A stretch of DNA of 64,000 nt from a virus (lineage: Duplodnaviria > Heunggongvirae > Uroviricota > Caudoviricetes), in the IMG/VR virus record IMGVR_UViG_2529293038_000017, positions 23,342 through 87,341 of that record; one strand, given 5' to 3'. How positions within the stretch are numbered: the stretch's first letter is position 1; each line of letters begins with the position of its first letter. Below are positions 1 to 33,897 of this stretch, one piece after another. The notes beneath the pieces are model-generated. The model was not told where the DNA came from, did no database searches, and was given only the letters and a program-made list of their open reading frames with translations. The position numbers and the translations under genes are program-made.

Positions 1-1668
1 CGGGGCCGGTTCTGGCTGAGTAATCTCACCGACTTCGGCCTGCAATGCATTGATCATGCTCTGCACCATTTTCTCGGTGCCAGCGCCCCCAGGAAACGCA
101 ATATTGGGGAAAGTTTTTTGAAACTGAGTTTTCAGCATTACGCGGAACTCGTCTGGTGAGCTGGTGGCCAGCTCCAGAGCTTTTTGTGCATATTTGCCAA
201 ACGGACCATTAGTAAGTGTCTTCGCCAGGAAGTCGAAAGAATCCTCGCGAGGCAATAACTTCAGGTCGTACTCACTCATTTGCTGATCAGAAAGCGGGGT
301 ATCGTAAGTAGCAATGCCGTAGCGTGCATATTCATAATACGGGTCACCTTCATCAGGGCGCGGCAGAATTGCTTTGTTACCTTCAGGTATTGCGCCAGGG
401 GCCGCCGGACGCATTTGCAGGGCATATCGATATGCACCTACAGAGACTTCTGGTTCAGGCGAAGAGCTACCGGTATCCTCCGCTGGTTCAGGTTCGACGT
501 TTTCCGGTTTATGTTCTTCTGGTTGGACCAGGTATTCCGATACATTACCCGCTTTATAGGCTTTAAACAGCTTGCCGATCGCATCTGCCATGTCCACACC
601 CTGTATGGATTTAGCCTTGATCATGTATACGCTGCCATCCGGATCGGTTAACTGGATATACCCTTCGCCGCCCCCAATGAATTGCTTCATTGATGCACCA
701 TTACTGAGCGTCACTTCCCCGTCCATATGCATACGATTTTTGATACTGGCAAGGCGATCCGTCAGCGCGCGAGAGTGCCCACCAGTCATCCCCGCTGGAG
801 CAATGGTATCGCGCCCACCAGTGCGATTGAGCTGATTAATCTCCGTCTGCAAACGCTCATTCTCTTCATAAAGAGAATCCGCTTCCGATGCAACAGCGTT
901 AATTTTCTGCTCCAGATCTGCCTTCTGCCCTTCTACCGCTGCCACCTGATCCGCGAGGTCGCTCATGGCATCCTCTTTCTGGTCACTGTCAGCCTGTAGT
1001 TGGGTTATTTCATCAACAAGGGCTTTTTTCTTCTTCTGCGCACGCTGGAATTTTGCCGAGTTTTTCTCTGCAAGGTTGGCAAGTTTCATGGTGACCTGCG
1101 CCAGCGTCATATCACGTCCACTCATCGGAGCAACGGTGTGAGTAACGTCTTTTTTATTCAGTAAGAACTGGAAAGCAACCAGCGTATCGCTATTGGTGAT
1201 CCGGTTTTCCGCTGTCGGGCTATGAAACAGAATGCTGATAGTCTGACCATCACTGAGCGGAATAATGGCTGGCAAGACCGGCAGCCCGTTAACGTTACGT
1301 GCCCGGCCAATTTCAGCGCCGCCGATCGCGCGCGCGCCGCTCTGGGCCACATCCCCCGTTTTATCACTCCCCGCAGAGATTCCGGTACCATTCAGCTTCT
1401 GGTTCAATGCCCGGACAAATGCCTGCATGGTCCGGTGTAACTGCAAACGAGTAGAACTAATCGCCTCCAGTAAATCCGTAGCACACCAGTGGATCGGCGT
1501 GTCATAGAAGAACGTAGCCTCGATTTCCTCCAGGGTGTTGGATTCCGTCATCAGATAGCGGTCCTCACCGGCCATTAATGCGCGATATTCATCATCAGTC
1601 ACTGGCGGGGGAAGCACGTCAAGCCCAGGCTTGATCGTCACCCCTTTATTGATATTGAACTGTTCCAT
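1..1668 (-). CDS. large coiled-coil protein, 5' part only (ATG at 1668, runs off window edge); DarA-like antirestriction/head protein suggested by position only
   Basis: Manual translation gives 556 open codons on minus strand to position 1; RBS AGGAAA 6 nt upstream of ATG. Absent from ORF track because edge-truncated. Product by synteny with P1 dar operon (recollection). Confidence 0.45.
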   Translation of the reverse strand, partial: MEQFNINKGVTIKPGLDVLPPPVTDDEYRALMAGEDRYLMTESNTLEEIEATFFYDTPIHWCATDLLEAISSTRLQLHRTMQAFVRALNQKLNGTGISAGSDKTGDVAQSGARAIGGAEIGRARNVNGLPVLPAIIPLSDGQTISILFHSPTAENRITNSDTLVAFQFLLNKKDVTHTVAPMSGRDMTLAQVTMKLANLAEKNSAKFQRAQKKKKALVDEITQLQADSDQKEDAMSDLADQVAAVEGQKADLEQKINAVASEADSLYEENERLQTEINQLNRTGGRDTIAPAGMTGGHSRALTDRLASIKNRMHMDGEVTLSNGASMKQFIGGGEGYIQLTDPDGSVYMIKAKSIQGVDMADAIGKLFKAYKAGNVSEYLVQPEEHKPENVEPEPAEDTGSSSPEPEVSVGAYRYALQMRPAAPGAIPEGNKAILPRPDEGDPYYEYARYGIATYDTPLSDQQMSEYDLKLLPREDSFDFLAKTLTNGPFGKYAQKALELATSSPDEFRVMLKTQFQKTFPNIAFPGGAGTEKMVQSMINALQAEVGEITQPEPAP

Positions 1669-1669
1669 G

Positions 1670-2272
1670 TTAATTTCCTGCTTTCAGTTGCTTAAGACGG
1701 CGTTTGAGTTCGCCATTTCGGGCCTTTTCGTTATTGAGTCGGCCTGTCTCCTTATCCAGCTTCGCTCGCAAATCAGTGATCTGCTGTTGATTGAAAGACA
1801 CCGAGTTCTGCGCTGATTTATAAGCGGCAACCACCTGAGCATTCCGCTGTTTTGCCTCTTGCAGGCGCTGAAAGTTGGATTTTACTGCCGGTTTCTTGTC
1901 TACCGGATTGGCAACACGTTTCGCTTTGGCGATCAGTGATTTCTGGAATTTTGCGGAGTTTTTGCGGGCCGCTTGCCCCATGACGGTACCAAGCGTCTTG
2001 ATATCCGGCGATTGAGCGTTAGGAATAGCTTTTCCATTCAGCCTCACAGACGATATATCGCCAGTATCGTTTACCTGTATGGCAAGAATTTGTCCGTCGT
2101 TAAGAACCAGCTTTGCGGTTTTAACTTTAACGCCATCTTTCGTTGTTGCGCGGTTGCTGGAGTCAACCTCAATTACCGTAACACCGGTTTTATTGATCGC
2201 CGCGATAAGGGATTTCAGCCCCTTTTCATTAACCTGGTCAAAATCGACCGTTGCATACTTATTTTTCGTCAT
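1670..2272 (-). CDS. coiled-coil protein, Hdf-like by position (about 200 aa)
   Basis: ORF 1670..2281; start moved to second ATG (MTKNKYA) with AGGA 8 nt upstream; Lys/Gln-rich coiled-coil C-terminus; coupled to upstream gene. Confidence 0.5.
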   Translation of the reverse strand: MTKNKYATVDFDQVNEKGLKSLIAAINKTGVTVIEVDSSNRATTKDGVKVKTAKLVLNDGQILAIQVNDTGDISSVRLNGKAIPNAQSPDIKTLGTVMGQAARKNSAKFQKSLIAKAKRVANPVDKKPAVKSNFQRLQEAKQRNAQVVAAYKSAQNSVSFNQQQITDLRAKLDKETGRLNNEKARNGELKRRLKQLKAGN

Positions 2273-2702
2273 CTGACACATCCTGTGCGAGATTTATTAC
2301 GTAACTTCTGCGGATTTGCTGAGTAACAGGGAAAATCCGATACAACGGGTTAATGAACGAGTCGCCATGCGTAACCATGACGTTGAAATGCCACAGTCGC
2401 TCTCCTTTACCCATATATTCAGTGGGTATGTACAACCATTCACTGTTTTCGCCCTGTTCAGCCGACGTCAAACAACGTTGTTCGCCTTCAATCACTGTCG
2501 TCGGCTTCTGAACATCGCGGATCCAATATCTGACCGTTGCGCCGCGCAAAAACGGGAATTTAGACCGGTATTTGAACGGCACCCGGATGAAACCCGGTTT
2601 AATTTCCACATCACCAAGTTCTAAATGCGTGATGTCCTTGCGTTTTAGCAAATAGCGATCGGCTAAGGCTAACGCAAGAACGCATACACCCCAGCCAATC
2701 AT
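2259..2702 (-). CDS. soluble 147-aa protein in lysis-gene cluster (LydB-like antiholin candidate)
   Basis: ORF in track; ATGA start/stop overlap with upstream holin-like gene; function from context only. Confidence 0.4.
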   Translation of the reverse strand: MIGWGVCVLALALADRYLLKRKDITHLELGDVEIKPGFIRVPFKYRSKFPFLRGATVRYWIRDVQKPTTVIEGEQRCLTSAEQGENSEWLYIPTEYMGKGERLWHFNVMVTHGDSFINPLYRIFPVTQQIRRSYVINLAQDVSDDEK

Positions 2703-3028
2703 TTCCCGCCTCCCTTTTTCACCAAACTTGTAAGAACATTCAGAATGCTATCGATATTCACTCGTTTCATCCCTGAAATCACCTCATGACCGTTATTGCT
2801 GGCTATCGTTACCATTAAGTACGTAATTGATAACTCCCAGCCCTCGTGTTGCCCCAATAGGTACGCCACCGCGCCAGCTGTCACTGCAACAAAGATCTCC
2901 GTAACCAATCCCAACAAATTGCCAGACTGGCGACCGTCTCGGACATCCATCAGGAACGTGCCTATCCCACCAATTACTGAAAGCAGGAGCGCAATAGCAA
3001 CTGGAGCTAATTCCTGTGTGTCAAGCAC
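2699..3028 (-). CDS. holin-like membrane protein (LydA-like)
   Basis: 109 aa with hydrophobic helices (AIALLLSVIGGIGTFL, IFVAVTAGAVAYLLG) and charged C-terminus KKGGGK. Confidence 0.5.
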   Translation of the reverse strand: MLDTQELAPVAIALLLSVIGGIGTFLMDVRDGRQSGNLLGLVTEIFVAVTAGAVAYLLGQHEGWELSITYLMVTIASNNGHEVISGMKRVNIDSILNVLTSLVKKGGGK

Positions 3029-3102
3029 AAGTTCCCTCCTACGTTGTCAGGAGGTAATGGTATGCAAAGTAACTTCTCAACCGGTTATGTTGCATAAGAG
3101 AC

Positions 3103-3366
3103 TTACCTATTCAACCGACTTTTGGAACCTTCAATAATAAGCCTGCTATTGGCGCTGAAAATAAGAACCATGCAGCTCTGAAGGCTTTCATTCATATCCT
3201 TATATTCCGCGAGATACATGCCAATAAAGCCAGCAAGTACGGCGGAAATACATTCGGCCAGCAATTTCTTGCATGAAGACTCGTAACGGTTTTCACATAG
3301 CCCACTCAAATACGAATACACCCCACCAAGAAGGGATAACATCACGATATGTACATAAAATGTCAT
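3103..3366 (-). CDS. small membrane protein (87 aa)
   Basis: ORF in track; two hydrophobic segments; first gene of the minus-strand lysis/dar operon. Confidence 0.4.
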   Translation of the reverse strand: MTFYVHIVMLSLLGGVYSYLSGLCENRYESSCKKLLAECISAVLAGFIGMYLAEYKDMNESLQSCMVLIFSANSRLIIEGSKSRLNR

Positions 3367-3493
3367 TTTTTACCTATACAACAGTAAGTTGAACAACATC
3401 TGAGAACGGTATGCACTTTGTGATTTCCACACACACTGGTTTTGTTAATTAAAACCTGTAGCTTGCAATAAATAACGATAGTGGGCAGAAAAT

Positions 3494-3670
3494 ATGCTAA
3501 TAGGCTATGTACGCATATAGACAAATGAACAAAACACAGCTATGCAGTGAAAAGCACTTGAAAGCGCAGGATGTGAGCTAATTTTTGCGAATAAGGCGAG
3601 CAGCAAAAAGGCTGGGCACCCTGGGTTAAAAAAGGTTCTGCGTATGCTTTCCAGAGGTGATACCCTAGTC
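3494..3670 (+). pseudogene. remnant of a second serine DNA invertase (Cin/Gin/Hin family) N-terminus with in-frame stops
   Basis: Reads MLIGYVRI*TNEQNTAMQ*KALESAGCELIFANKASSKKAGHPGLKKVLRMLSRGDTLV, aligning to the Cin N-terminus in this window (MQIGYIRVSTNDQNT...GDTLVVWKLDRLGRS); the catalytic Ser codon is TAG; homology ends at 3670. Confidence 0.65.
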
Positions 3671-3801
3671 TCGGGCTAGGGACAACATTTCGAGGACAGT
3701 TTTCATTAGCGGTCAGCAGGCGCTAGATACATCGAATTGATGTGCCGCGCGATAAATGTACCTATTCTATCAAGATAAATTACACCGACGCGGCATTAGA
3801 A

Positions 3802-4374
3802 TTACAGCTCAGATTGAGTTTGGCGCTTCTCTACAGGATGATAACGATAAATCGTCGATACACCGATATCGTAAATAATTGCCAACTGTTTCCTGCTGTA
3901 GCCATTTTCGATCAACCTCGCTATTTGCTCATGTTGTTCTTTTGTCAACTTCGGGCGACGTCCGCCAATGCGTCCCTGTTCGCGTGCAGCTGCCAGTCCG
4001 GCCAGTGTTCTCTCAACAATTAATTCACGTTCCATTTCTGCTAAAGCCCCCATGACGTGAAAAAAGAAACGCCCCATGGGTGTTGATGTGTCAATACTGT
4101 CTGTCAGACTACGGAAATTAACACCTTTTTCCCGCAACTCCTCTATAAGCGTGATAAGGTGTTTCATACTTCTGCCAAGCCTATCCAGCTTCCAGACAAC
4201 CAGCGTATCTCCTTCTGATAACGTTCTGAGCAGCTTTTTCAAGCCTGGTCTGGCTGACTTTGTTCCGCTTATTTTATCTTCAAAAATCAGTTCACATCCT
4301 GCGCAGTTCAGTGCATTTCTTTGTAAATCTGTGTTTTGGTCATTTGTTGACACACGAATGTAGCCAATTTGCAT
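3802..4374 (-). CDS. cin: Cin-type serine DNA invertase
   Basis: IGYIRVSTNDQ catalytic motif, LDRLGRS, C-terminal HTH; start set to ATG 4374 (AAGAGG 9 nt upstream) rather than track TTG at 4383; adjacent to invertible fibre segment. Confidence 0.9.
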   Translation of the reverse strand: MQIGYIRVSTNDQNTDLQRNALNCAGCELIFEDKISGTKSARPGLKKLLRTLSEGDTLVVWKLDRLGRSMKHLITLIEELREKGVNFRSLTDSIDTSTPMGRFFFHVMGALAEMERELIVERTLAGLAAAREQGRIGGRRPKLTKEQHEQIARLIENGYSRKQLAIIYDIGVSTIYRYHPVEKRQTQSEL

Positions 4375-4427
4375 GAAAAACAACCTCTTTGTTTAGTTAA
4401 AAATACATCGTTGGTATAGGTAGGGAT

Positions 4428-4453
4428 TAAGACTAAAACGTTGGTTTGGGAGA
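4428..4453. other. cix-like crossover site (left boundary of invertible segment)
   Basis: TAAGACTAAAACGTTGGTTTGGGAGAA; right half is reverse complement of left half of the site at 6010..6035; hix/gix-like AAACC-NN-GGTTT core. Confidence 0.5.
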
Positions 4454-4943
4454 AGGCTCTGCATTACCTGTTGGTGTCCCTGTTCCGTGGCCTTCAGCCA
4501 CTCCGCCAACAGGCTGGCTGAAATGCAACGGTGCGGCTTTTTCTGCTGAAGAATACCCGGAACTGGCAAAGGCTTACCCGACAAATAAATTGCCTGATTT
4601 ACGTGGTGAGTTCATTCGTGGCTGGGATGACGGGCGCGGGATTGATCCAGGTCGCTCTATTTTAAGCGAGCAAGGATATGCAACGGAGGATCATGCTCAC
4701 GGATTACCGTCAAAATCAACCGTAGCAACTGACAGCTCAATTAATTTCTACTTTGACGAGGCATGGGCTACTAGTGGTAATACGGGAGTTATCAGATGGG
4801 GGAACACAAGCGATGCAGGATTGCCAGCCCCTAATTATGGAACTTTTAAAACATATAAACAGTCCGTAGCTAATTTAGGTACTGCTGGCTTAGAAACCCG
4901 CCCTCGTAATATTGCATTTAATTATATTGTGAGGGCGGATTAA
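4446..4943 (+). CDS. silent alternative tail-fibre C-terminal cassette (Sv'-like); expressed only after inversion fuses it to the S constant part
   Basis: N-terminal ~65 aa (GEGSALPVGVPVPWPSATPPTGWLKCNGAAFS...DLRGEFIRGWDDGRG) and C-terminal ETRPRNIAFNYIVRA are shared with the S C-terminus on the opposite strand; middle differs. Confidence 0.6.
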   Translation: MGEGSALPVGVPVPWPSATPPTGWLKCNGAAFSAEEYPELAKAYPTNKLPDLRGEFIRGWDDGRGIDPGRSILSEQGYATEDHAHGLPSKSTVATDSSINFYFDEAWATSGNTGVIRWGNTSDAGLPAPNYGTFKTYKQSVANLGTAGLETRPRNIAFNYIVRAD

Positions 4944-7685: not shown

Positions 7686-7763
7686 GATTTTCCCTAATCA
7701 ATGTTGTGAAGCCTCATTGTAAGATAAGTAACTTGTCACCCCGCCCTGCGGACGGGGTGATTG

Positions 7764-16264: not shown

Positions 16265-16298
16265 TTAACCGATTCTACGAGTAGTCATTTGTGACAGG

Positions 16299-20149: not shown

Positions 20150-20728
20150 ATGCTGGCTAAAGTCACTTTCCTGAGCTGTATAACGATGAGCGATTTTACT
20201 TTTTCTGGCTATGAATTGGCCTGCTTTGTAACACACTCCGGTCTATCCCGTAGCGCCGGGCATATCCTGTCGCAATGTGCAAATCTCGCGGCAACAACCA
20301 GTGAATACTTCATTCACAAGCCTCACCGCCTGATCGCGGCAGAAACTGGTTATAGCCAATCAACCGTCGTTCGTGCATTCCGTGAAGCTGTAAACAAAGG
20401 AATTCTGTCTGTAGAGATTGTTATCGGCGATCACCGTGAACGTCGCGCTAACCTGTACCGGTTTACACCATCCTTTTTGGCCTTCGCACAACAAGCCAAA
20501 AATGCGCTGATTGAAAGCAAATTAAAGATCTCTTCAGCGGCAACCAAGGTTAAAGCTGTTCTCGCTAAGACATTGGCTTTATTTAATTTTTTATCCACAC
20601 CCCCATGTCAAAATGATACCCCCTCCCCCTGTCAGGATGACGTGGCAATAAAGAATAAGAAGTCACAAGTTAAAAAACAAAAAGATCAGTTTCCGGCGGT
20701 GCCGGAACGACCAGACTCAAAAAATTGA
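20150..20728 (+). CDS. RepL-like lytic replication protein candidate (by position after kilA)
   Basis: 192-aa ORF; start uncertain; no motif confirmation. Confidence 0.35.
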   Translation: MLAKVTFLSCITMSDFTFSGYELACFVTHSGLSRSAGHILSQCANLAATTSEYFIHKPHRLIAAETGYSQSTVVRAFREAVNKGILSVEIVIGDHRERRANLYRFTPSFLAFAQQAKNALIESKLKISSAATKVKAVLAKTLALFNFLSTPPCQNDTPSPCQDDVAIKNKKSQVKKQKDQFPAVPERPDSKN

Positions 20729-25356: not shown

Positions 25357-27084
25357 TTACTCAGAGTCACCAGCATCAATCGTGTTACCGGTCAGGAAGT
25401 TAATTCCGCCATTTTTTGCCATAGTCAGAGTTACACGGGTGAAGTAGTCAGCACCGTTGCGTGGATGCATATCGTTGATAGCCGAACCCCACAGAGTGGT
25501 TCGGTTGACTAGTGCCGGGGTGGTCGGATGCTGGAATGGGACAGCCGGGACTGCATCACCAGTTACGAAGCCCGCTTTGCCCGGATTTTCATCACGGACG
25601 TAGCACAGCACATCCATTGGGCTGAACTGGATACCGTCGGCGGTCAGGTTCGTACAAATACCTTCTGGTACTTCGAACACTTTGACGTTGCCGAACAGAG
25701 TGCCAATGTAGTGGACGTATGGGGTCTGGATGTAATCTTCTGCTGGCAGGAAGAAATCCTTCGGCAATTGTTTGAAGAAAGATGCCGCATCAGCACCGGC
25801 ATACATCCCCATCGCACCAGAAGATTTAACACGCTCAATAATACCGCGATATACCGTCTGGAATTTGCCTCGAATGATGGTTGCCCACACATCAAAGGTC
25901 TGGTTAGCTGGTAGTGCAATATCAAAGGAGTCGGTCGCAAGAGTTCGCCAAATCATGATACGAAGACGAAGCATATCTTGCTCATGGGACAGGTATTCCT
26001 TCAGGGTGCGGAACTGTAGGGAGCCAAGATCCAGACCAAATTCACGCTGTGCTTCATACGCCGCCTGTACCGTGTGCTCAGCCGCGATGACGAACTGGTT
26101 TGGGAACAGGGTGTAACTCTTCATTTCGTGGTTGATAAGTGGGATCAGCTCAGGAGCTGCTTCTATATTGATCTCCGCCTCAATGGCGATCTCAGTGCCT
26201 TTATCCGGCGCTTTGGAGAACGACAGGGCAATCTGACCAACGTTGTAATTCAAAGAGCAAGTAACAGTGATTTGTTCGCCTGCTTTGTTATTGAATGTGT
26301 GAAGCAGAGTACCGGAGCCGTTATCAACAACAGACTTAATACGGTTAACGTAGATGTTTGTGCGACCTTTGCGAATCGGGACATTCTGACCTTCGACATC
26401 TTCCATCTTGAAGGTTGCAGTTTTGCTGGTGCCGTCGGAGCTTGCAACCAGCACATAGCGGCGGCGCAACTGGCTGTACACGCCAACGGATTGCATGTCC
26501 AGAACATCACCAATAGCATAGGAGCCAAAAGAAGAACCCGCTACGTTAAAGATTTCATAGATTTCGGACTTGTCACGCGTAACCGGAATGAATGTACACG
26601 CATCAGCGGTAGCTGCCCCCAACTGAACAGGCAGGATCATCGCCAAGAATAAAGGCAGACGCATAACCCCGTCAGAAACACTCATCATCTCTGCCGCGAC
26701 TGATTCCAGCATCGCTTTATTGGTGGCGTCCATGCTATTGCGGGTGGACTCAATCAGGCAGTTTTCCAGCGTCTGATGGCAGGAGGCCAGAATTTCCGGA
26801 CGTGGCATAGATTTATGTGTTGCGGCGTAGTCAGCCAGTGCACTTGCCCACGCTGTAGCGATTTGAGCGGTGGCATTATCAGAGATACCCGCAAAAATTG
26901 GGTCTTTACGTGCAGCTTCAAGGATAGATGCGGCACGCGCGGCATCATCTTTAATGAATTGGTTATCAGTACCGAACTGCGCAGTGCTTGCCCAGCCAAG
27001 CACAGCTTTAGAGCGTTTTGCGATATCTGCAATACGATTCTGGTATTCGCGTAAGTTACTCAATTTACTCTTCCTTAAACACAA
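25357..27084 (-). CDS. major capsid protein candidate with N-terminal helical (delta-like) region
   Basis: 575-codon frame next to parB; helical N-terminal ~130 aa then beta-rich body; track start is TTG; alternative TTG at 27063 after AAGGAAG. Confidence 0.45.
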   Translation of the reverse strand: MCLRKSKLSNLREYQNRIADIAKRSKAVLGWASTAQFGTDNQFIKDDAARAASILEAARKDPIFAGISDNATAQIATAWASALADYAATHKSMPRPEILASCHQTLENCLIESTRNSMDATNKAMLESVAAEMMSVSDGVMRLPLFLAMILPVQLGAATADACTFIPVTRDKSEIYEIFNVAGSSFGSYAIGDVLDMQSVGVYSQLRRRYVLVASSDGTSKTATFKMEDVEGQNVPIRKGRTNIYVNRIKSVVDNGSGTLLHTFNNKAGEQITVTCSLNYNVGQIALSFSKAPDKGTEIAIEAEINIEAAPELIPLINHEMKSYTLFPNQFVIAAEHTVQAAYEAQREFGLDLGSLQFRTLKEYLSHEQDMLRLRIMIWRTLATDSFDIALPANQTFDVWATIIRGKFQTVYRGIIERVKSSGAMGMYAGADAASFFKQLPKDFFLPAEDYIQTPYVHYIGTLFGNVKVFEVPEGICTNLTADGIQFSPMDVLCYVRDENPGKAGFVTGDAVPAVPFQHPTTPALVNRTTLWGSAINDMHPRNGADYFTRVTLTMAKNGGINFLTGNTIDAGDSE

Positions 27085-27199
27085 GGCACTTGTGTGAATC
27101 CCTTTTCGGAAGAGATTTTATTGAAAGTCACTTGTTGACTTTCTCGTGACAAGCAATTTTTTTATTTTTTTCGGGAGTAGGGGAGGAAGGTAAAATCCA

Positions 27200-31082: not shown

Positions 31083-31129
31083 CGATACACTTCTAAGCCA
31101 GACGTGGCGCGGCCTGCAACGATCAGGGA

Positions 31130-31198
31130 TCTATATGGATCTAATTGGGATCTGTATGGACCTGATTATTGGATCTACCCAGTGGATAATGTGGATAA
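31130..31198. promoter_or_regulatory. oriR GATC cluster and tandem DnaA boxes
   Basis: Five GATC within ~60 bp; AGTGGATAA + TGTGGATAA (31181..31198). Confidence 0.8.
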
Positions 31199-31247
31199 GT
31201 GAAAAACCGGCCACTGAGGACCGATTTCTGTGAAGAGTTGAAGCGAA

Positions 31248-31649
31248 TTAGTTGTCGTTTTCCGTACCTACTTCTTCGATCAACAAACTACTTGTATAGA
31301 TGCGTAACGTATCACCTTTGTAGAGGAATTGATAACCAACACCTCCTATGGCAGGGAGGTCGGGGAACATTTCAGAAGCAACCCCAGAGCAAATCACGGC
31401 GATACAGTCATCCCGCTGTACATCCTTACGCTCTGTACTCAAAGTTTGCTCTTCCCCGATTGCCTTTGTCATCTCCTCATCTTCGTACGCAACAGGGATA
31501 TATTCAATCGCATCAGGCGTTTTGATACCCAGTTCTTCAGCAATCTCGAACGCCTGTTTAAATTGATCTGACCCAGGATATCCAACGGTAATACTCTCAA
31601 TTTCGAACAAAGAAGTAGCGTTGTTTATTTCTTGTTTAACCGCAAACAT
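31248..31649 (-). CDS. acidic hypothetical protein (133 aa)
   Basis: ORF in track adjacent to oriR. Confidence 0.5.
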   Translation of the reverse strand: MFAVKQEINNATSLFEIESITVGYPGSDQFKQAFEIAEELGIKTPDAIEYIPVAYEDEEMTKAIGEEQTLSTERKDVQRDDCIAVICSGVASEMFPDLPAIGGVGYQFLYKGDTLRIYTSSLLIEEVGTENDN

Positions 31650-31719
31650 GTTGTTTGTCCTTAGTGGCTTCCTGCCAAAGTAAAGTCATGAGTGTTGATA
31701 TTACGATTTCTACAGTTGA

Positions 31720-32079
31720 TTAAATCTGCTCGCTGAGCTTTTGCTTCAGCAGATAACCTTCCAGCGGCCAGATTTTCTCAATGGCGTTCTTACGGGCCAC
31801 CTTACGGCCAATCTCCGCGTCGAAATTTTCAGGGCTGGCACAGGCGCTTTCCCCGGTAACAATGAATCCATTGCACAGCACCAAGACACAGATGGTCAGG
31901 CTACGCGTAGAGGGATGAACAGACAGCACCTCACGAACGCCTTCGTGCGCAGCGCGAATGCCGTCAAAAGCTGTGAAATAATGCTCTTCGGCAATCACAC
32001 TCTCGATGTGATCAGGAGTCAGGCGTGGTGCTGTTTTGCCTTTGGCCAGAATCTCTTTTTCAATTTCCATATCGGACAT
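31720..32079 (-). CDS. hypothetical protein (119 aa)
   Basis: ORF in track. Confidence 0.5.
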   Translation of the reverse strand: MSDMEIEKEILAKGKTAPRLTPDHIESVIAEEHYFTAFDGIRAAHEGVREVLSVHPSTRSLTICVLVLCNGFIVTGESACASPENFDAEIGRKVARKNAIEKIWPLEGYLLKQKLSEQI

Positions 32080-32090
32080 AGTTTTTCCTT

Positions 32091-32423
32091 TTAGTTACCG
32101 CTGATAGCACGGTTGTAATCATTAACGTTGCGATTCTTCCTGTTAATCCCCTTCAGCATCGTTTCTGTATCGAGGATATACGCTGGCAGATCATCAAAAT
32201 ATTCACTGCTAAACTCTGGCATTCTGCACATAAATGCACTTTTGGGGGCAGGGTGGTTAACCTTTGTCGGCGTCGGCGTTAAATTCGCTGATCGACTCCC
32301 GGAGCAACCGCTGAGTGTCAGCAGGAATGCGCTGGCGAACATTACCCGCCGCAACCAGTTGTTTCTGAACTTCAGCTTTTCGTTCCATTTGCCTGTCAGC
32401 ATATTTGGCTTGTTCTGATTCAT
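32091..32423 (-). CDS. o-spanin-like outer-membrane lipoprotein (Rz1-like), overlapping i-spanin out of frame
   Basis: Lipobox LLTLSGCSG after basic/hydrophobic leader; Pro-rich; likely start at internal ATG 32342; 3' half lies within i-spanin gene. Confidence 0.55.
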   Translation of the reverse strand: MNQNKPNMLTGKWNEKLKFRNNWLRRVMFASAFLLTLSGCSGSRSANLTPTPTKVNHPAPKSAFMCRMPEFSSEYFDDLPAYILDTETMLKGINRKNRNVNDYNRAISGN

Positions 32424-32679
32424 TTTTCACTTCCTGGCTGTGAAAATGTTGCTCTGCTTTGTTCATCGTCTCAATGGTCTGGTTAAGATCCATTATTGAC
32501 TTATCACGTTCCTTAACAGCCTGATCAAGACTGCCAATTTTCTCCATGGCTTGCTTTAGCTGATGACGTTCCCATGCAAACCCAGCACCAACAAGTGCGC
32601 AAATCAGAACAAGAACACCAGTAGCAGCAAGTTTCTCCTTCAAAGACAAAGCTGTTTTTAACGTAGAAAAGAATGACAT
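32257..32679 (-). CDS. i-spanin-like protein (Rz-like; N-terminal TM helix plus coiled coil)
   Basis: Start set to ATG 32679 (AGGAGG upstream); TM LAATGVLVLICALVGAGFAW then coiled-coil. Confidence 0.55.
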   Translation of the reverse strand: MSFFSTLKTALSLKEKLAATGVLVLICALVGAGFAWERHQLKQAMEKIGSLDQAVKERDKSIMDLNQTIETMNKAEQHFHSQEVKNESEQAKYADRQMERKAEVQKQLVAAGNVRQRIPADTQRLLRESISEFNADADKG

Positions 32680-32718
32680 GTCTTCCTCCTGAAGAAAAAT
32701 TATCAATGAAGTCCTTTG

Positions 32719-33507
32719 TTACTGTGCCGCTTTGTTTAATTCATCAAGAACAGAATCAGGAACCAAAGCGGCAACTGCGCTGGCTGTGCTGACCTTATTT
32801 GCTGATGCTTCCGCAAGCGCGGTACCGATAGCATGGTTATAAGCAGTTATGGCTACGTTGGCGCTTTCATTCGCTCGTTCATACTGCTGTTGTAACGCAG
32901 TTGTGGGCGCTGTTGTCTGGTTGAAAACAACCCCAAACTGTTCAGTTGCTACTTTCAGAGATTCAATTTGCTCTTCTGTTAGTGCTGGTGGGGGAGTGGC
33001 AGTGCCGCCGCCTGAACCAGAGCCTGACGAGCTTCCTGAGCCAGTGTTAAGGGTCTGGTTAATCTCCCCCATAGCAGCGACTAAACTTGATGTATTAAGC
33101 GCGTTTACAGCGTCCTCAAGCGATTTAGTAATAGTCACATCACCAATGGCAATAGAGATCGGCAGTTCTGATACTTCTCGCTCATTAGCACGACAGTAAA
33201 CATCCCAACCAATATCGAGTTGAAGGAGCATTGACAGATCAGCATAACCAGCCAACAGGTCCGCGTGCTTAGTTGCCAGTTCTCCAATGTTCGTTAAGCC
33301 GGTTGTGGTTGTTCTGATCGTTGAAACATAGCTGGTAATAGTGTCGGGATAGACAATTGTATCCAGAATTAATCCGGTCAATTCTTCTGCAAGCAGTTTT
33401 GCTGTGTTAGCACTGTTTCGTGCCGATGTTATGGCACCAGGTGTTTTCATCCCACCGGCGGCGGCCAATTTTTTATATGCGGATAACTGGTAGTCTTTTT
33501 CCAGCAT
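32719..33507 (-). CDS. hypothetical protein with Gly/Ser-rich linker (263 aa)
   Basis: Start set to ATG 33507 (AGGAG 5 nt upstream) to avoid overlap with PAAR gene; GSGSSSGSGSGGG linker. Confidence 0.5.
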   Translation of the reverse strand: MLEKDYQLSAYKKLAAAGGMKTPGAITSARNSANTAKLLAEELTGLILDTIVYPDTITSYVSTIRTTTTGLTNIGELATKHADLLAGYADLSMLLQLDIGWDVYCRANEREVSELPISIAIGDVTITKSLEDAVNALNTSSLVAAMGEINQTLNTGSGSSSGSGSGGGTATPPPALTEEQIESLKVATEQFGVVFNQTTAPTTALQQQYERANESANVAITAYNHAIGTALAEASANKVSTASAVAALVPDSVLDELNKAAQ

Positions 33508-33515
33508 GATATCTC

Positions 33516-33800
33516 CTAACTTACCTGAACCAGGCCGTCTCCGGACGCTACGGTAGATCCGCATGAAACAGGGTCACCAACGCATACGATCCCTTTACCA
33601 TTGACGGTAAACCATGCCCTGGTTGATATAGCTTGCCCACCGTGCGTACTGTTTCCATCGGTATGCTGTGCATATTGCTTACCATCAACTAACACTTCGA
33701 CTCCGTTGACTTTAAGTAGTGGTTCACTCTCTACAGGAGGCCTGGATGGGAATCCTCCGTGCCCCGAACAAATGCTGTCTTTTGTTGCAATACTTGCCAC
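33516..33800 (-). CDS. PAAR-like spike-tip protein (94 aa)
   Basis: PAAR-type pattern: HGG, VNGK, VGDPVSCG, GDGLVQV. Confidence 0.6.
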   Translation of the reverse strand: MASIATKDSICSGHGGFPSRPPVESEPLLKVNGVEVLVDGKQYAQHTDGNSTHGGQAISTRAWFTVNGKGIVCVGDPVSCGSTVASGDGLVQVS

Positions 33801-33880
33801 GTCATCACCAATTATTTGCTCTGGTTTTCGTTATTTTAACTTAGGTTACTTGTGGTCTATATGGTGTTAACTATTGCATG

Positions 33881-33897
33881 ATTGCTCTAATAAATAT
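33881..33897 (+). promoter_or_regulatory. C1-type operator upstream of uhr-hrdC-dmt operon
   Basis: ATTGCTCTAATAAATAT, 1 mismatch. Confidence 0.65.

Follow-up and report, generated by a model that had tools for sequence, protein, structure and literature searches.

The overlapping ppfA and mlp genes of a P1-like phage-plasmid: a probable two-component spanin pair encoded away from the other lysis genes

Two genes that overlap out of frame in a P1-like phage-plasmid, ppfA and mlp, very probably encode a two-component spanin with an ‘overlapped’ architecture; PpfA being the candidate i-spanin and Mlp the candidate o-spanin. Within the window (by which we mean the whole 64,000-nucleotide stretch of DNA analysed) and the relatives compared with it, we observe the anatomy of the two genes, their membrane signals, selection in both reading frames, conservation of the pair and its identity with that of P1. 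The pair, and the dispersal of the lysis genes among which it would be counted, are already known and catalogued, since the P1 genes have been described both in a survey of phage spanins (Kongari 2018; PMC6139136) and in a study of P1 lysis (Bednarek 2022; PMC9025707).

Comparison at the level of DNA places the window in a P1-like (Punavirus) phage-plasmid. It aligns to P1 from coordinate 28156 onward, a start point that falls inside darA, and the segment carrying mlp-ppfA-upfB-upfC (31500..33800) is 95.9–99% identical to P1, P7, RCS47, SJ46 and other punaviruses; the spanin region itself recurs at 100% identity in many IncY E. coli phage-plasmids of ~97 kb. At the protein level, PpfA matches its P1 counterpart at 139/140 residues (the difference being I45M) and Mlp at 107/110 (S7N, V32A and M90K). 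By this similarity the overlapping genes can be identified as ppfA and mlp, which in the P1 reference record (NC_005856) are named for a ‘possible periplasmic function’ and as a ‘membrane lipoprotein precursor’, the latter relabelled ‘Rz-like spanin’. Profile comparison with PHROGs places both proteins in the P1 spanin family (PpfA/Mlp; phrog_89 and phrog_30284): PpfA matches phrog_89 with E = 1.2e-25, and Mlp matches phrog_30284 with E = 3e-76 and phrog_456 with E = 1.3e-05, all of them ‘Rz-like spanin’ families. Neither protein matches the Pfam Rz (Phage_lysis) or Rz1 families at E <= 0.1, and the score of PpfA against NCBIfam TIGR03495 (P2 LysB), at 19 bits (E = 0.0013), falls far under the curated cutoff of 92.75 bits. 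The spanin region finds a match in 737 plasmid records, in which PGAP either labels the genes ‘hypothetical protein’ or leaves mlp uncalled or truncated.

The first gene of the pair, ppfA (32257..32679, minus strand), runs from an ATG at 32679 to a stop at 32257 and encodes 140 amino acids; a Shine-Dalgarno sequence, AGGAGG (32685..32690, minus strand), stands 5 nt ahead of the ATG. The best 19-residue Kyte-Doolittle window of PpfA covers residues 17–35 (mean 2.35; codons at 32575..32631, minus strand), with basic residues K8, K14 and K16 on the N-terminal side of this predicted transmembrane (TM) helix, and the C-terminal part of the protein comprises 104 residues, 36% of them charged and none of them Cys. 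From these features we infer a type II topology, with a cytoplasmic N-terminus and a periplasmic C-terminal domain; PpfA thus has the single N-terminal TM domain and periplasmic C-terminal domain that define an i-spanin, as far as predicted topology goes. An AlphaFold2 model calculated from a 20-sequence alignment (mean pLDDT 71, pTM 0.25) embeds the hydrophobic segment in a long helix (residues 13–110), formed by the TM helix and periplasmic helix 1, followed by a break at residues 111–119 (AGNVRQRIP) and a second helix at residues 120–139. As modelled, the plan of the protein is therefore TMD-helix-linker-helix, as described for i-spanins (PMC6139136).

The second gene, mlp (32091..32423, minus strand), begins at an ATG at 32423, stops at 32091 and encodes a 110-amino acid precursor; its Shine-Dalgarno sequence, AGGAAG (32430..32435, minus strand), lies 6 nt ahead of the ATG, within the PpfA codons for Q-E-V. 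Residues 37–40 of Mlp form a lipobox, L-S-G-C (32304..32315, minus strand), ending in Cys40 and with Ser at position +2; the prediction is of a 39-residue signal peptide and a mature lipoprotein of 71 amino acids that starts at the Cys (CSGS...). Because the +2 residue is Ser and not Asp, Mlp is without an inner-membrane retention signal, and by its sequence it has the lipobox, the Cys and the lack of Asp at +2 expected of an o-spanin. A second Cys lies in the motif FMCRMP and is conserved in all clades. Of 528 two-component spanin systems, 507 have one or more periplasmic Cys in one subunit or the other (PMC6139136); here it is the extra Cys of Mlp, PpfA having none, and any covalent dimer could therefore form only through this single conserved residue. 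A six-frame scan of the 64 kb for ORFs that combine a signal with a lipobox passed only 4 loci, mlp among them, two of the four being judged likely spurious; Mlp emerges from the scan as the only small outer-membrane-type lipoprotein candidate. The remaining locus, a lipoprotein ORF at 41100..41927 (likely P1 plp), was considered as an alternative o-spanin and rejected, being 275 amino acids long and having Asp at +2.

An earlier note on this DNA had described an Rz-like protein with a TM helix and a lipobox-containing, Pro-rich Rz1-like ORF (32091..32423), encoded by out-of-frame genes overlapping by ~165 nt. The anatomy of the two genes is as it described, the shared segment measuring 167 nt (32257..32423, minus strand) with mlp in the +1 frame of ppfA: an overlapped arrangement, as distinct from embedded or separated adjacent genes. 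Its right-hand boundary, 32706, does not stand, however, as this is an upstream in-frame TTG taken from a mechanical ORF call, the ATG being at 32679. The hydropathy window, the phrog_89 match and the helix-linker-helix model uphold the Rz-like protein, and the LSGC lipobox with Cys40, the Ser at +2 and the phrog_30284 match uphold the Rz1-like one; ‘Pro-rich’, by comparison, is only moderately true of Mlp, whose 71-residue mature form has 6 Pro, 5 of which fall among its first 30 residues. The reading of the two as a spanin pair agrees with Table S1 of PMC6139136, with PMC9025707, with the PHROG families and with the selection in two frames set out below.

The length of the mlp ORF does not by itself lie beyond chance, since several ORFs of 96–117 amino acids overlie real genes, on the other strand or in another frame, in the same 3 kb. 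It could accordingly be supposed that the 110-codon mlp frame is a chance ORF over the 3′ end of ppfA, and that only ppfA is real; ORFs of ~100 amino acids over real genes are common in this stretch, the first 27 codons of Mlp are unconstrained as protein, and PGAP often leaves mlp ‘hypothetical’, truncated or uncalled. We place mlp above chance on account of the lipobox scan, the retention of the overlapping ORF in four clades and a codon-position test; this last being an ungapped comparison of the window with relatives whose PpfA is ~60% identical (L004, from Cronobacter; L005 and L007, from Salmonella; and L006, from Klebsiella). In the ppfA-only segment, where the DNA is ~60% identical to this clade, the third codon position of ppfA is the most variable (nucleotide identity 0.36–0.56), and residues 1–85 of PpfA have an amino-acid identity of 0.48–0.54. 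Over the first 81 nt of the overlap, encoding Mlp residues 1–27, position 3 of ppfA is still the variable one (0.37–0.52), with amino-acid identities of 0.67–0.70 for PpfA and 0.26–0.33 for Mlp, the latter amounting to no constraint at the protein level. Over the next 84 nt (32260..32343, minus strand) all three positions are at 0.82–0.93 nucleotide identity, and amino-acid identity is 0.68–0.79 for Mlp residues 28–55 and 0.79–0.86 for PpfA residues 113–140; this segment encodes the hydrophobic core, the lipobox and the first mature residues of Mlp together with helix 2 of PpfA. The flanking single-gene parts have a wobble identity of 0.36–0.64. Past the ppfA stop, in the mlp-only segment, the variable position becomes position 3 of mlp (0.49–0.64), and Mlp residues 56–110 are 0.78–0.82 identical at the amino-acid level, against ~60% for the ppfA-only DNA. 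Such a switch in wobble position, as read from these alignments, is characteristic of two real genes that share a doubly constrained overlap, and the codon-position test refutes the reading of mlp as a chance frame. Since, in addition, relatives whose PpfA is as little as ~31% identical still have the ORF, together with its lipobox and C-terminal motifs, and its Shine-Dalgarno sequence and ATG are conserved, we regard that reading as scarcely credible.

With mlp taken as a real gene, the same organisation can be followed into more distant relatives. In the ~60% clade the gene context is upfC-upfB-ppfA-...-repA-parA, and the +1 frame is open across the same span in each case, encoding a lipoprotein precursor with a lipobox of LSAC, LNAC or LNGC. 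The most distant full-length members (L009 and L010) encode a PpfA of 151 amino acids, 31% identical and in the same gene context, overlapped over 179 nt by an ORF of 109 amino acids with a lipobox of LSAC and 48% identity to Mlp. Three motifs of Mlp (FMC.MP.F, DDLP.YILD and INRKN.NVN.YNR) are kept in both the ~60% and the ~31% clades, and a fourth, shorter contig (L011) carries a +1-frame lipoprotein with a lipobox of LSSC, in which the motifs are diverged but recognisable. In all, the overlapped lipoprotein arrangement is conserved across four clades. When 1.84 billion representative proteins were searched exhaustively (HMMER) with a PpfA profile, only 37 matched, and the PpfA family is therefore confined to P1-like elements.

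Frameshifted alleles of the pair are common, with ~85 database sequences carrying them, which suggests that the pair is dispensable in some prophages. We considered whether a programmed frameshift might give rise to a PpfA-Mlp fusion and rejected this, as the 195-amino acid fusions found in the database join at many different single-base deletions.

Table S1 of PMC6139136 lists PpfA and Mlp of P1 and P7 as an overlapped (‘ovl’) i-/o-spanin pair in a ‘P1’ family of their own. There, P1 gp064 (PpfA) is the i-spanin, of 140 amino acids, with a 104-residue periplasmic domain and 0 periplasmic Cys, and gp063 (Mlp) is the o-spanin, of 110 amino acids, with a 39-residue signal, a 71-residue mature part and 1 periplasmic Cys. 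The table remarks of P1 Mlp ‘Too long signal sequence’, with a LipoP cleavage site at position 39, and of the P7 entry that the start codon may differ (PMC6139136). The annotated ATG of mlp is kept in three clades, as is its Shine-Dalgarno sequence, within invariant PpfA codons for Q-E; for the latter sequence the ~60% clade has AGGAGG and the ~31% clade AGGAAG. Two alternative in-frame starts lie downstream (32342..32356, minus strand), a TTG at 32354 (codon 24) and an ATG at 32342 (codon 28), neither of which is preceded by a Shine-Dalgarno sequence; initiation at either one would yield a short canonical signal peptide (MRRVMFASAFLLTLSG, cut before the C), of 16 residues for the start at codon 24. 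At codon 24 the P1 clade has TTG and the ~60% clade ATG; the PpfA residue encoded at the same site varies among V, H, D and Y, any of which preserves xTG in the +1 frame, and one sequence, with E, breaks it. The mature lipoprotein is the same whichever start is used. Since the first 27 residues of Mlp are unconstrained, it may be, more modestly, that the 39-residue signal peptide of the catalogue is not what matters.

Setting PpfA and Mlp beside characterised systems, the prototype ‘overlapped’ spanin, LysB/LysC of phage P2, has the same layout, the o-spanin gene beginning within that of the i-spanin, in the +1 frame, and continuing beyond it; like PpfA, the P2 i-spanin combines an N-terminal TM helix with a helical ectodomain. 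This likeness does not extend to sequence, there being no real family membership at the sub-cutoff TIGR03495 score given above. The P2 lysB and lysC genes sit in a lysis cassette beside the holin and endolysin genes, whereas the pair in the window lies ~29 kb from the holin genes. As for Rz/Rz1 of phage lambda, PpfA and Mlp would share with it the combination of an inner-membrane type II protein (two helical segments joined by a linker) and a small outer-membrane lipoprotein, and Rz1 (at C29) and Mlp each have one periplasmic Cys. The two systems differ in that Rz1 is fully embedded in Rz, within an S-R-Rz cassette, whereas the pair in the window is overlapped and outside any lysis cassette; in that Rz has two periplasmic Cys, forming intermolecular disulfides, and PpfA none; and in that Rz1 has 40 amino acids with 10 Pro, compared with 71 and 6 for mature Mlp.

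The earlier note had placed holin/antiholin-like genes ~29 kb from the pair, at 2.2–3.4 kb, had seen no endolysin in the window, and had concluded that the lysis functions are dispersed; the holin genes and the dispersal are confirmed, and so, as far as P1 proteins serve as queries, is the lack of an endolysin. Comparison with P1 proteins (tblastn), together with the ORFs, locates lydB at 2259..2702 (98.6% identity), lydA at 2699..3028 (100%) and a diverged lydC at 3103..3366 (67%), all on the minus strand; by this homology the genes at 2259..3366 are those of an antiholin and holins. An exact match to the late-promoter pattern at 3057..3075 corresponds to LPdar. P1 Lyz, LydD and LydE find no tblastn match in the window at E <= 1e-3. 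The only murein-active protein seen in the window is the virion transglycosylase Sit. In plasmid NZ_CP024817, which matches the window at 100% identity over 31100..32800 and at 98% over window positions 1..4651, the first base of the window corresponds to position 49153, and a ‘lysozyme’ gene is found at 40582..41139, ~8 kb before that base, as in P1. The endolysin is thus missing because the window ends too early, and is not absent from the phage. A place in a lysis cassette beside the holin and endolysin genes is typical of spanin genes, if not obligatory, and here lydA, lydB and lydC are 29 kb away. This is the known arrangement of P1, whose ppfA and mlp, partly overlapping, share an operon that is not linked to lyz-lydD-lydE or to lydA-lydB (PMC9025707). 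The text of that study swaps the i- and o- labels of PpfA and Mlp, and its passage on the two genes gives their assignment as spanins as coming from predicted features, citing Summer et al.

Upstream of the pair, in the same operon, are upfB (32719..33564, minus strand) and, as first gene, upfC (33516..33800, minus strand), encoding a PAAR-motif protein described in a note to the P1 record as T4 gp5.4-like. UpfC scores 26.4 bits against Pfam PAAR_motif (E = 8.5e-06), just under the 27-bit cutoff, and matches phrog_281 with E = 2e-30. The P1 record likewise has ppfA and mlp following upfC and upfB, beside repA/oriR, and the overlap, the ribosome-binding sites and the upfB and upfC neighbours are the same in P1, P7 and the window. 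Downstream of mlp, P1 and the window differ, P1 having upfA and the window two other ORFs, a Gp49/Sf6 gp66-family gene and an ORF of 133 amino acids; an arrangement also seen in the more distant clades.

For the transcription of this operon we used a late-promoter consensus, AARTKAYT-N5-YANNNT, derived from six annotated P1 late promoters, which recovers LPdar, LPs and LPsit within the window. A scan with this consensus found no match with one mismatch or fewer upstream of upfC-upfB-ppfA-mlp. A degenerate late-promoter-like element of the Lpa type, AAGTAACCT-AAGT-TAAAAT (33833..33851, minus strand), with 2 mismatches to the consensus, lies 54 nt before the upfC start, and the distant clades have closer matches in the same place, AAATGACTG-GATC-CATACT in L010 and TAATGACAA-GACT-TACAAT in L007; we take the element as a candidate late promoter for the operon, as a lead only. 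The P1 annotators give only predicted sigma-70 promoters here, and a generic scan for sigma-70 promoters and terminators did not rise above shuffled expectation, the sigma-70-like match on the operon strand being at 33839..33811. A C1 operator (33881..33897) lies ~45 bp upstream of the -35 hexamer of that match; it belongs to the divergent dmt promoter, and we make no claim for C1 control of the operon.

These features of the operon raise the question of whether PpfA and Mlp act in the envelope for some purpose other than lysis, being spanin-like only in their topology; for example in superinfection exclusion, in entry or ejection together with UpfC (PAAR) and UpfB, or as a membrane function expressed in the lysogen. 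The pair is co-transcribed with upfC, whose product is spike-tip-like, and upfB and not with a holin or endolysin gene, a context kept in all three clades seen; it lacks a clean late promoter, the annotated ones being of the predicted sigma-70 type; and it has no curated Rz/Rz1 or LysB family membership. In a genome-wide CRISPRi study, knock-down gave EOP values of 0.24 and 0.19 for mlp and of 1.3 and 1.2 for ppfA, both genes being scored as non-essential for plaquing (PMC10695390). Laboratory cultures that are shaken can lyse without spanins, however (PMC9025707), and the CRISPRi result is for that reason uninformative. Against a non-lysis role stand the joint conservation of a helix-linker-helix type II protein and an overlapping small outer-membrane lipoprotein, which is the exact signature of a spanin; the strong matches to the PHROG spanin profiles; and the finding, from the lipobox scan, that the window holds no other spanin candidate, when only 91/677 phages of Gram-negative hosts are without one in the Kongari survey (PMC6139136). 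We therefore think a purely non-lysis role unlikely. We give a similarly low probability to the broader proposal that the pair has not, or not only, a late lysis function, serving in another envelope process or being made before the late phase and lying dormant until Lyz acts; the proposal draws on the conserved upfC-upfB-ppfA-mlp operon with at best a degenerate late promoter, its position beside the plasmid replicon, the plaquing unaffected by knock-down and the common frameshifted alleles.

In arriving at our confidence in the spanin assignment we counted against it the lack of a clean Lpa late promoter, the placing of the operon beside plasmid replication and partition genes and not in a lysis cassette, the CRISPRi non-essentiality (PMC10695390) and the ~85 frameshifted alleles, as well as the lack of a Pfam Rz/Rz1 match, the sub-cutoff LysB score, the missing periplasmic Cys of PpfA and the unusually long 39-residue signal peptide of Mlp.

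If PpfA and Mlp do act as a spanin, then by analogy with lambda Rz/Rz1 (summarised in PMC6139136) their complex formation, membrane fusion and timing might be as follows. The N-terminal TM helix of PpfA would insert into the inner membrane (N-in, C-out), the helix-linker-helix domain of the protein, one of ~104 residues reaching into the periplasm, and Mlp would be exported, lipidated at Cys40 and cut by signal peptidase II, to be anchored in the outer membrane. The periplasmic domains of the two would then bind one another, forming bridges through the peptidoglycan mesh. Once the holin or holins (LydA, LydC or LydD) had fired and the SAR-endolysin Lyz had degraded the murein, the bridges would be freed and would collapse, fusing the inner and outer membranes and so removing the last barrier to phage release.

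With the dispersed lysis genes of P1 and the pair itself already in the literature and in the spanin database, the finding has little importance beyond correct annotation; a rule-based spanin call would close the gap in PGAP annotation. The frame-switching codon pattern and the conservation to ~31% identity add solid comparative support for a predicted spanin pair. Beyond the literature there are two small additions, the unconstrained first 27 codons of Mlp and the degenerate late-promoter-like element before upfC, and these start-codon and promoter observations bear on how, and when, the P1 spanin is made.

Across the 167-nt stretch shared out of frame by ppfA and mlp (32257..32423), about 85 sequences in public assemblies carry a single continuous reading frame, giving PpfA::Mlp fusions of 193-195 aa (database proteins P0002, P0031, P0038, P0044, P0046, P0055, P0066 and P0072). 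One single-base deletion within the overlap suffices to explain each of them; the most frequent junction, seen in 59 of the ~85, fits the loss of one A from the A5 run that sits immediately before the mlp ATG (GTGAAAAATG). The 195-aa length follows by construction from any -1 shift in this overlap. The fusions resemble null alleles or assembly artefacts more than products of programmed frameshifting.

Apart from Mlp, the window holds just one credible lipoprotein, a 275-aa ORF (41100..41927, plus strand) that is likely P1 plp; its signal, MKKTLISAAIILGSLCLTG|CD..., places Asp at +2, and retention in the inner membrane is therefore predicted.

Working upstream from ppfA, upfB (start region at window 33507..33564, minus strand) is annotated in P1 as a 281-aa ORF with a 49-nt overlap with upfC. 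The true start is probably Met20 (MLEKDYQ...), because the PHROG alignment begins at residue 20, the upfB of relatives is 258-262 aa long and starts after upfC, and ON470617 is annotated with the shorter form. In the P1 record the upfC-upfB-ppfA-mlp operon has no annotated late promoter. At 33833..33851 (minus strand), 54 nt ahead of upfC, there is a degenerate Lpa-type element resembling a late promoter, with closer matches at the same position in distant P1-like clades. Exact matches to the late-promoter consensus are found at LPdar (3057..3075), LPs (7716..7734) and LPsit (16272..16290), as well as at 20150..20168, 27115..27133, 47802..47820 and 49507..49525 (all minus strand) and 27053..27071 (plus strand); these last five are presumably the remaining known P1 late promoters.

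Amongst the holin genes, the lydC homologue (3103..3366, minus strand) shows just 67% identity to P1 LydC, with a product of 87 aa versus 93 aa in P1; for the neighbouring genes lydA and lydB the identities to P1 are 100% and 98.6%. The lydC homologue is a locally diverged holin paralogue.

In P1, upfA lies between mlp and oriR/repA. Here its place (31214..32086, minus strand) is taken by two other minus-strand ORFs. One, at 31720..32079, encodes a 119-aa member of the Gp49/Sf6 gp66 family (Pfam PF13876, E = 1e-33); the other is 133 aa long (31248..31649; phrog_1453). A Gp49-family gene likewise follows mlp in both the ~60% and ~31% clades (grouped by PpfA identity), and so the upfA of P1 may represent the derived state.
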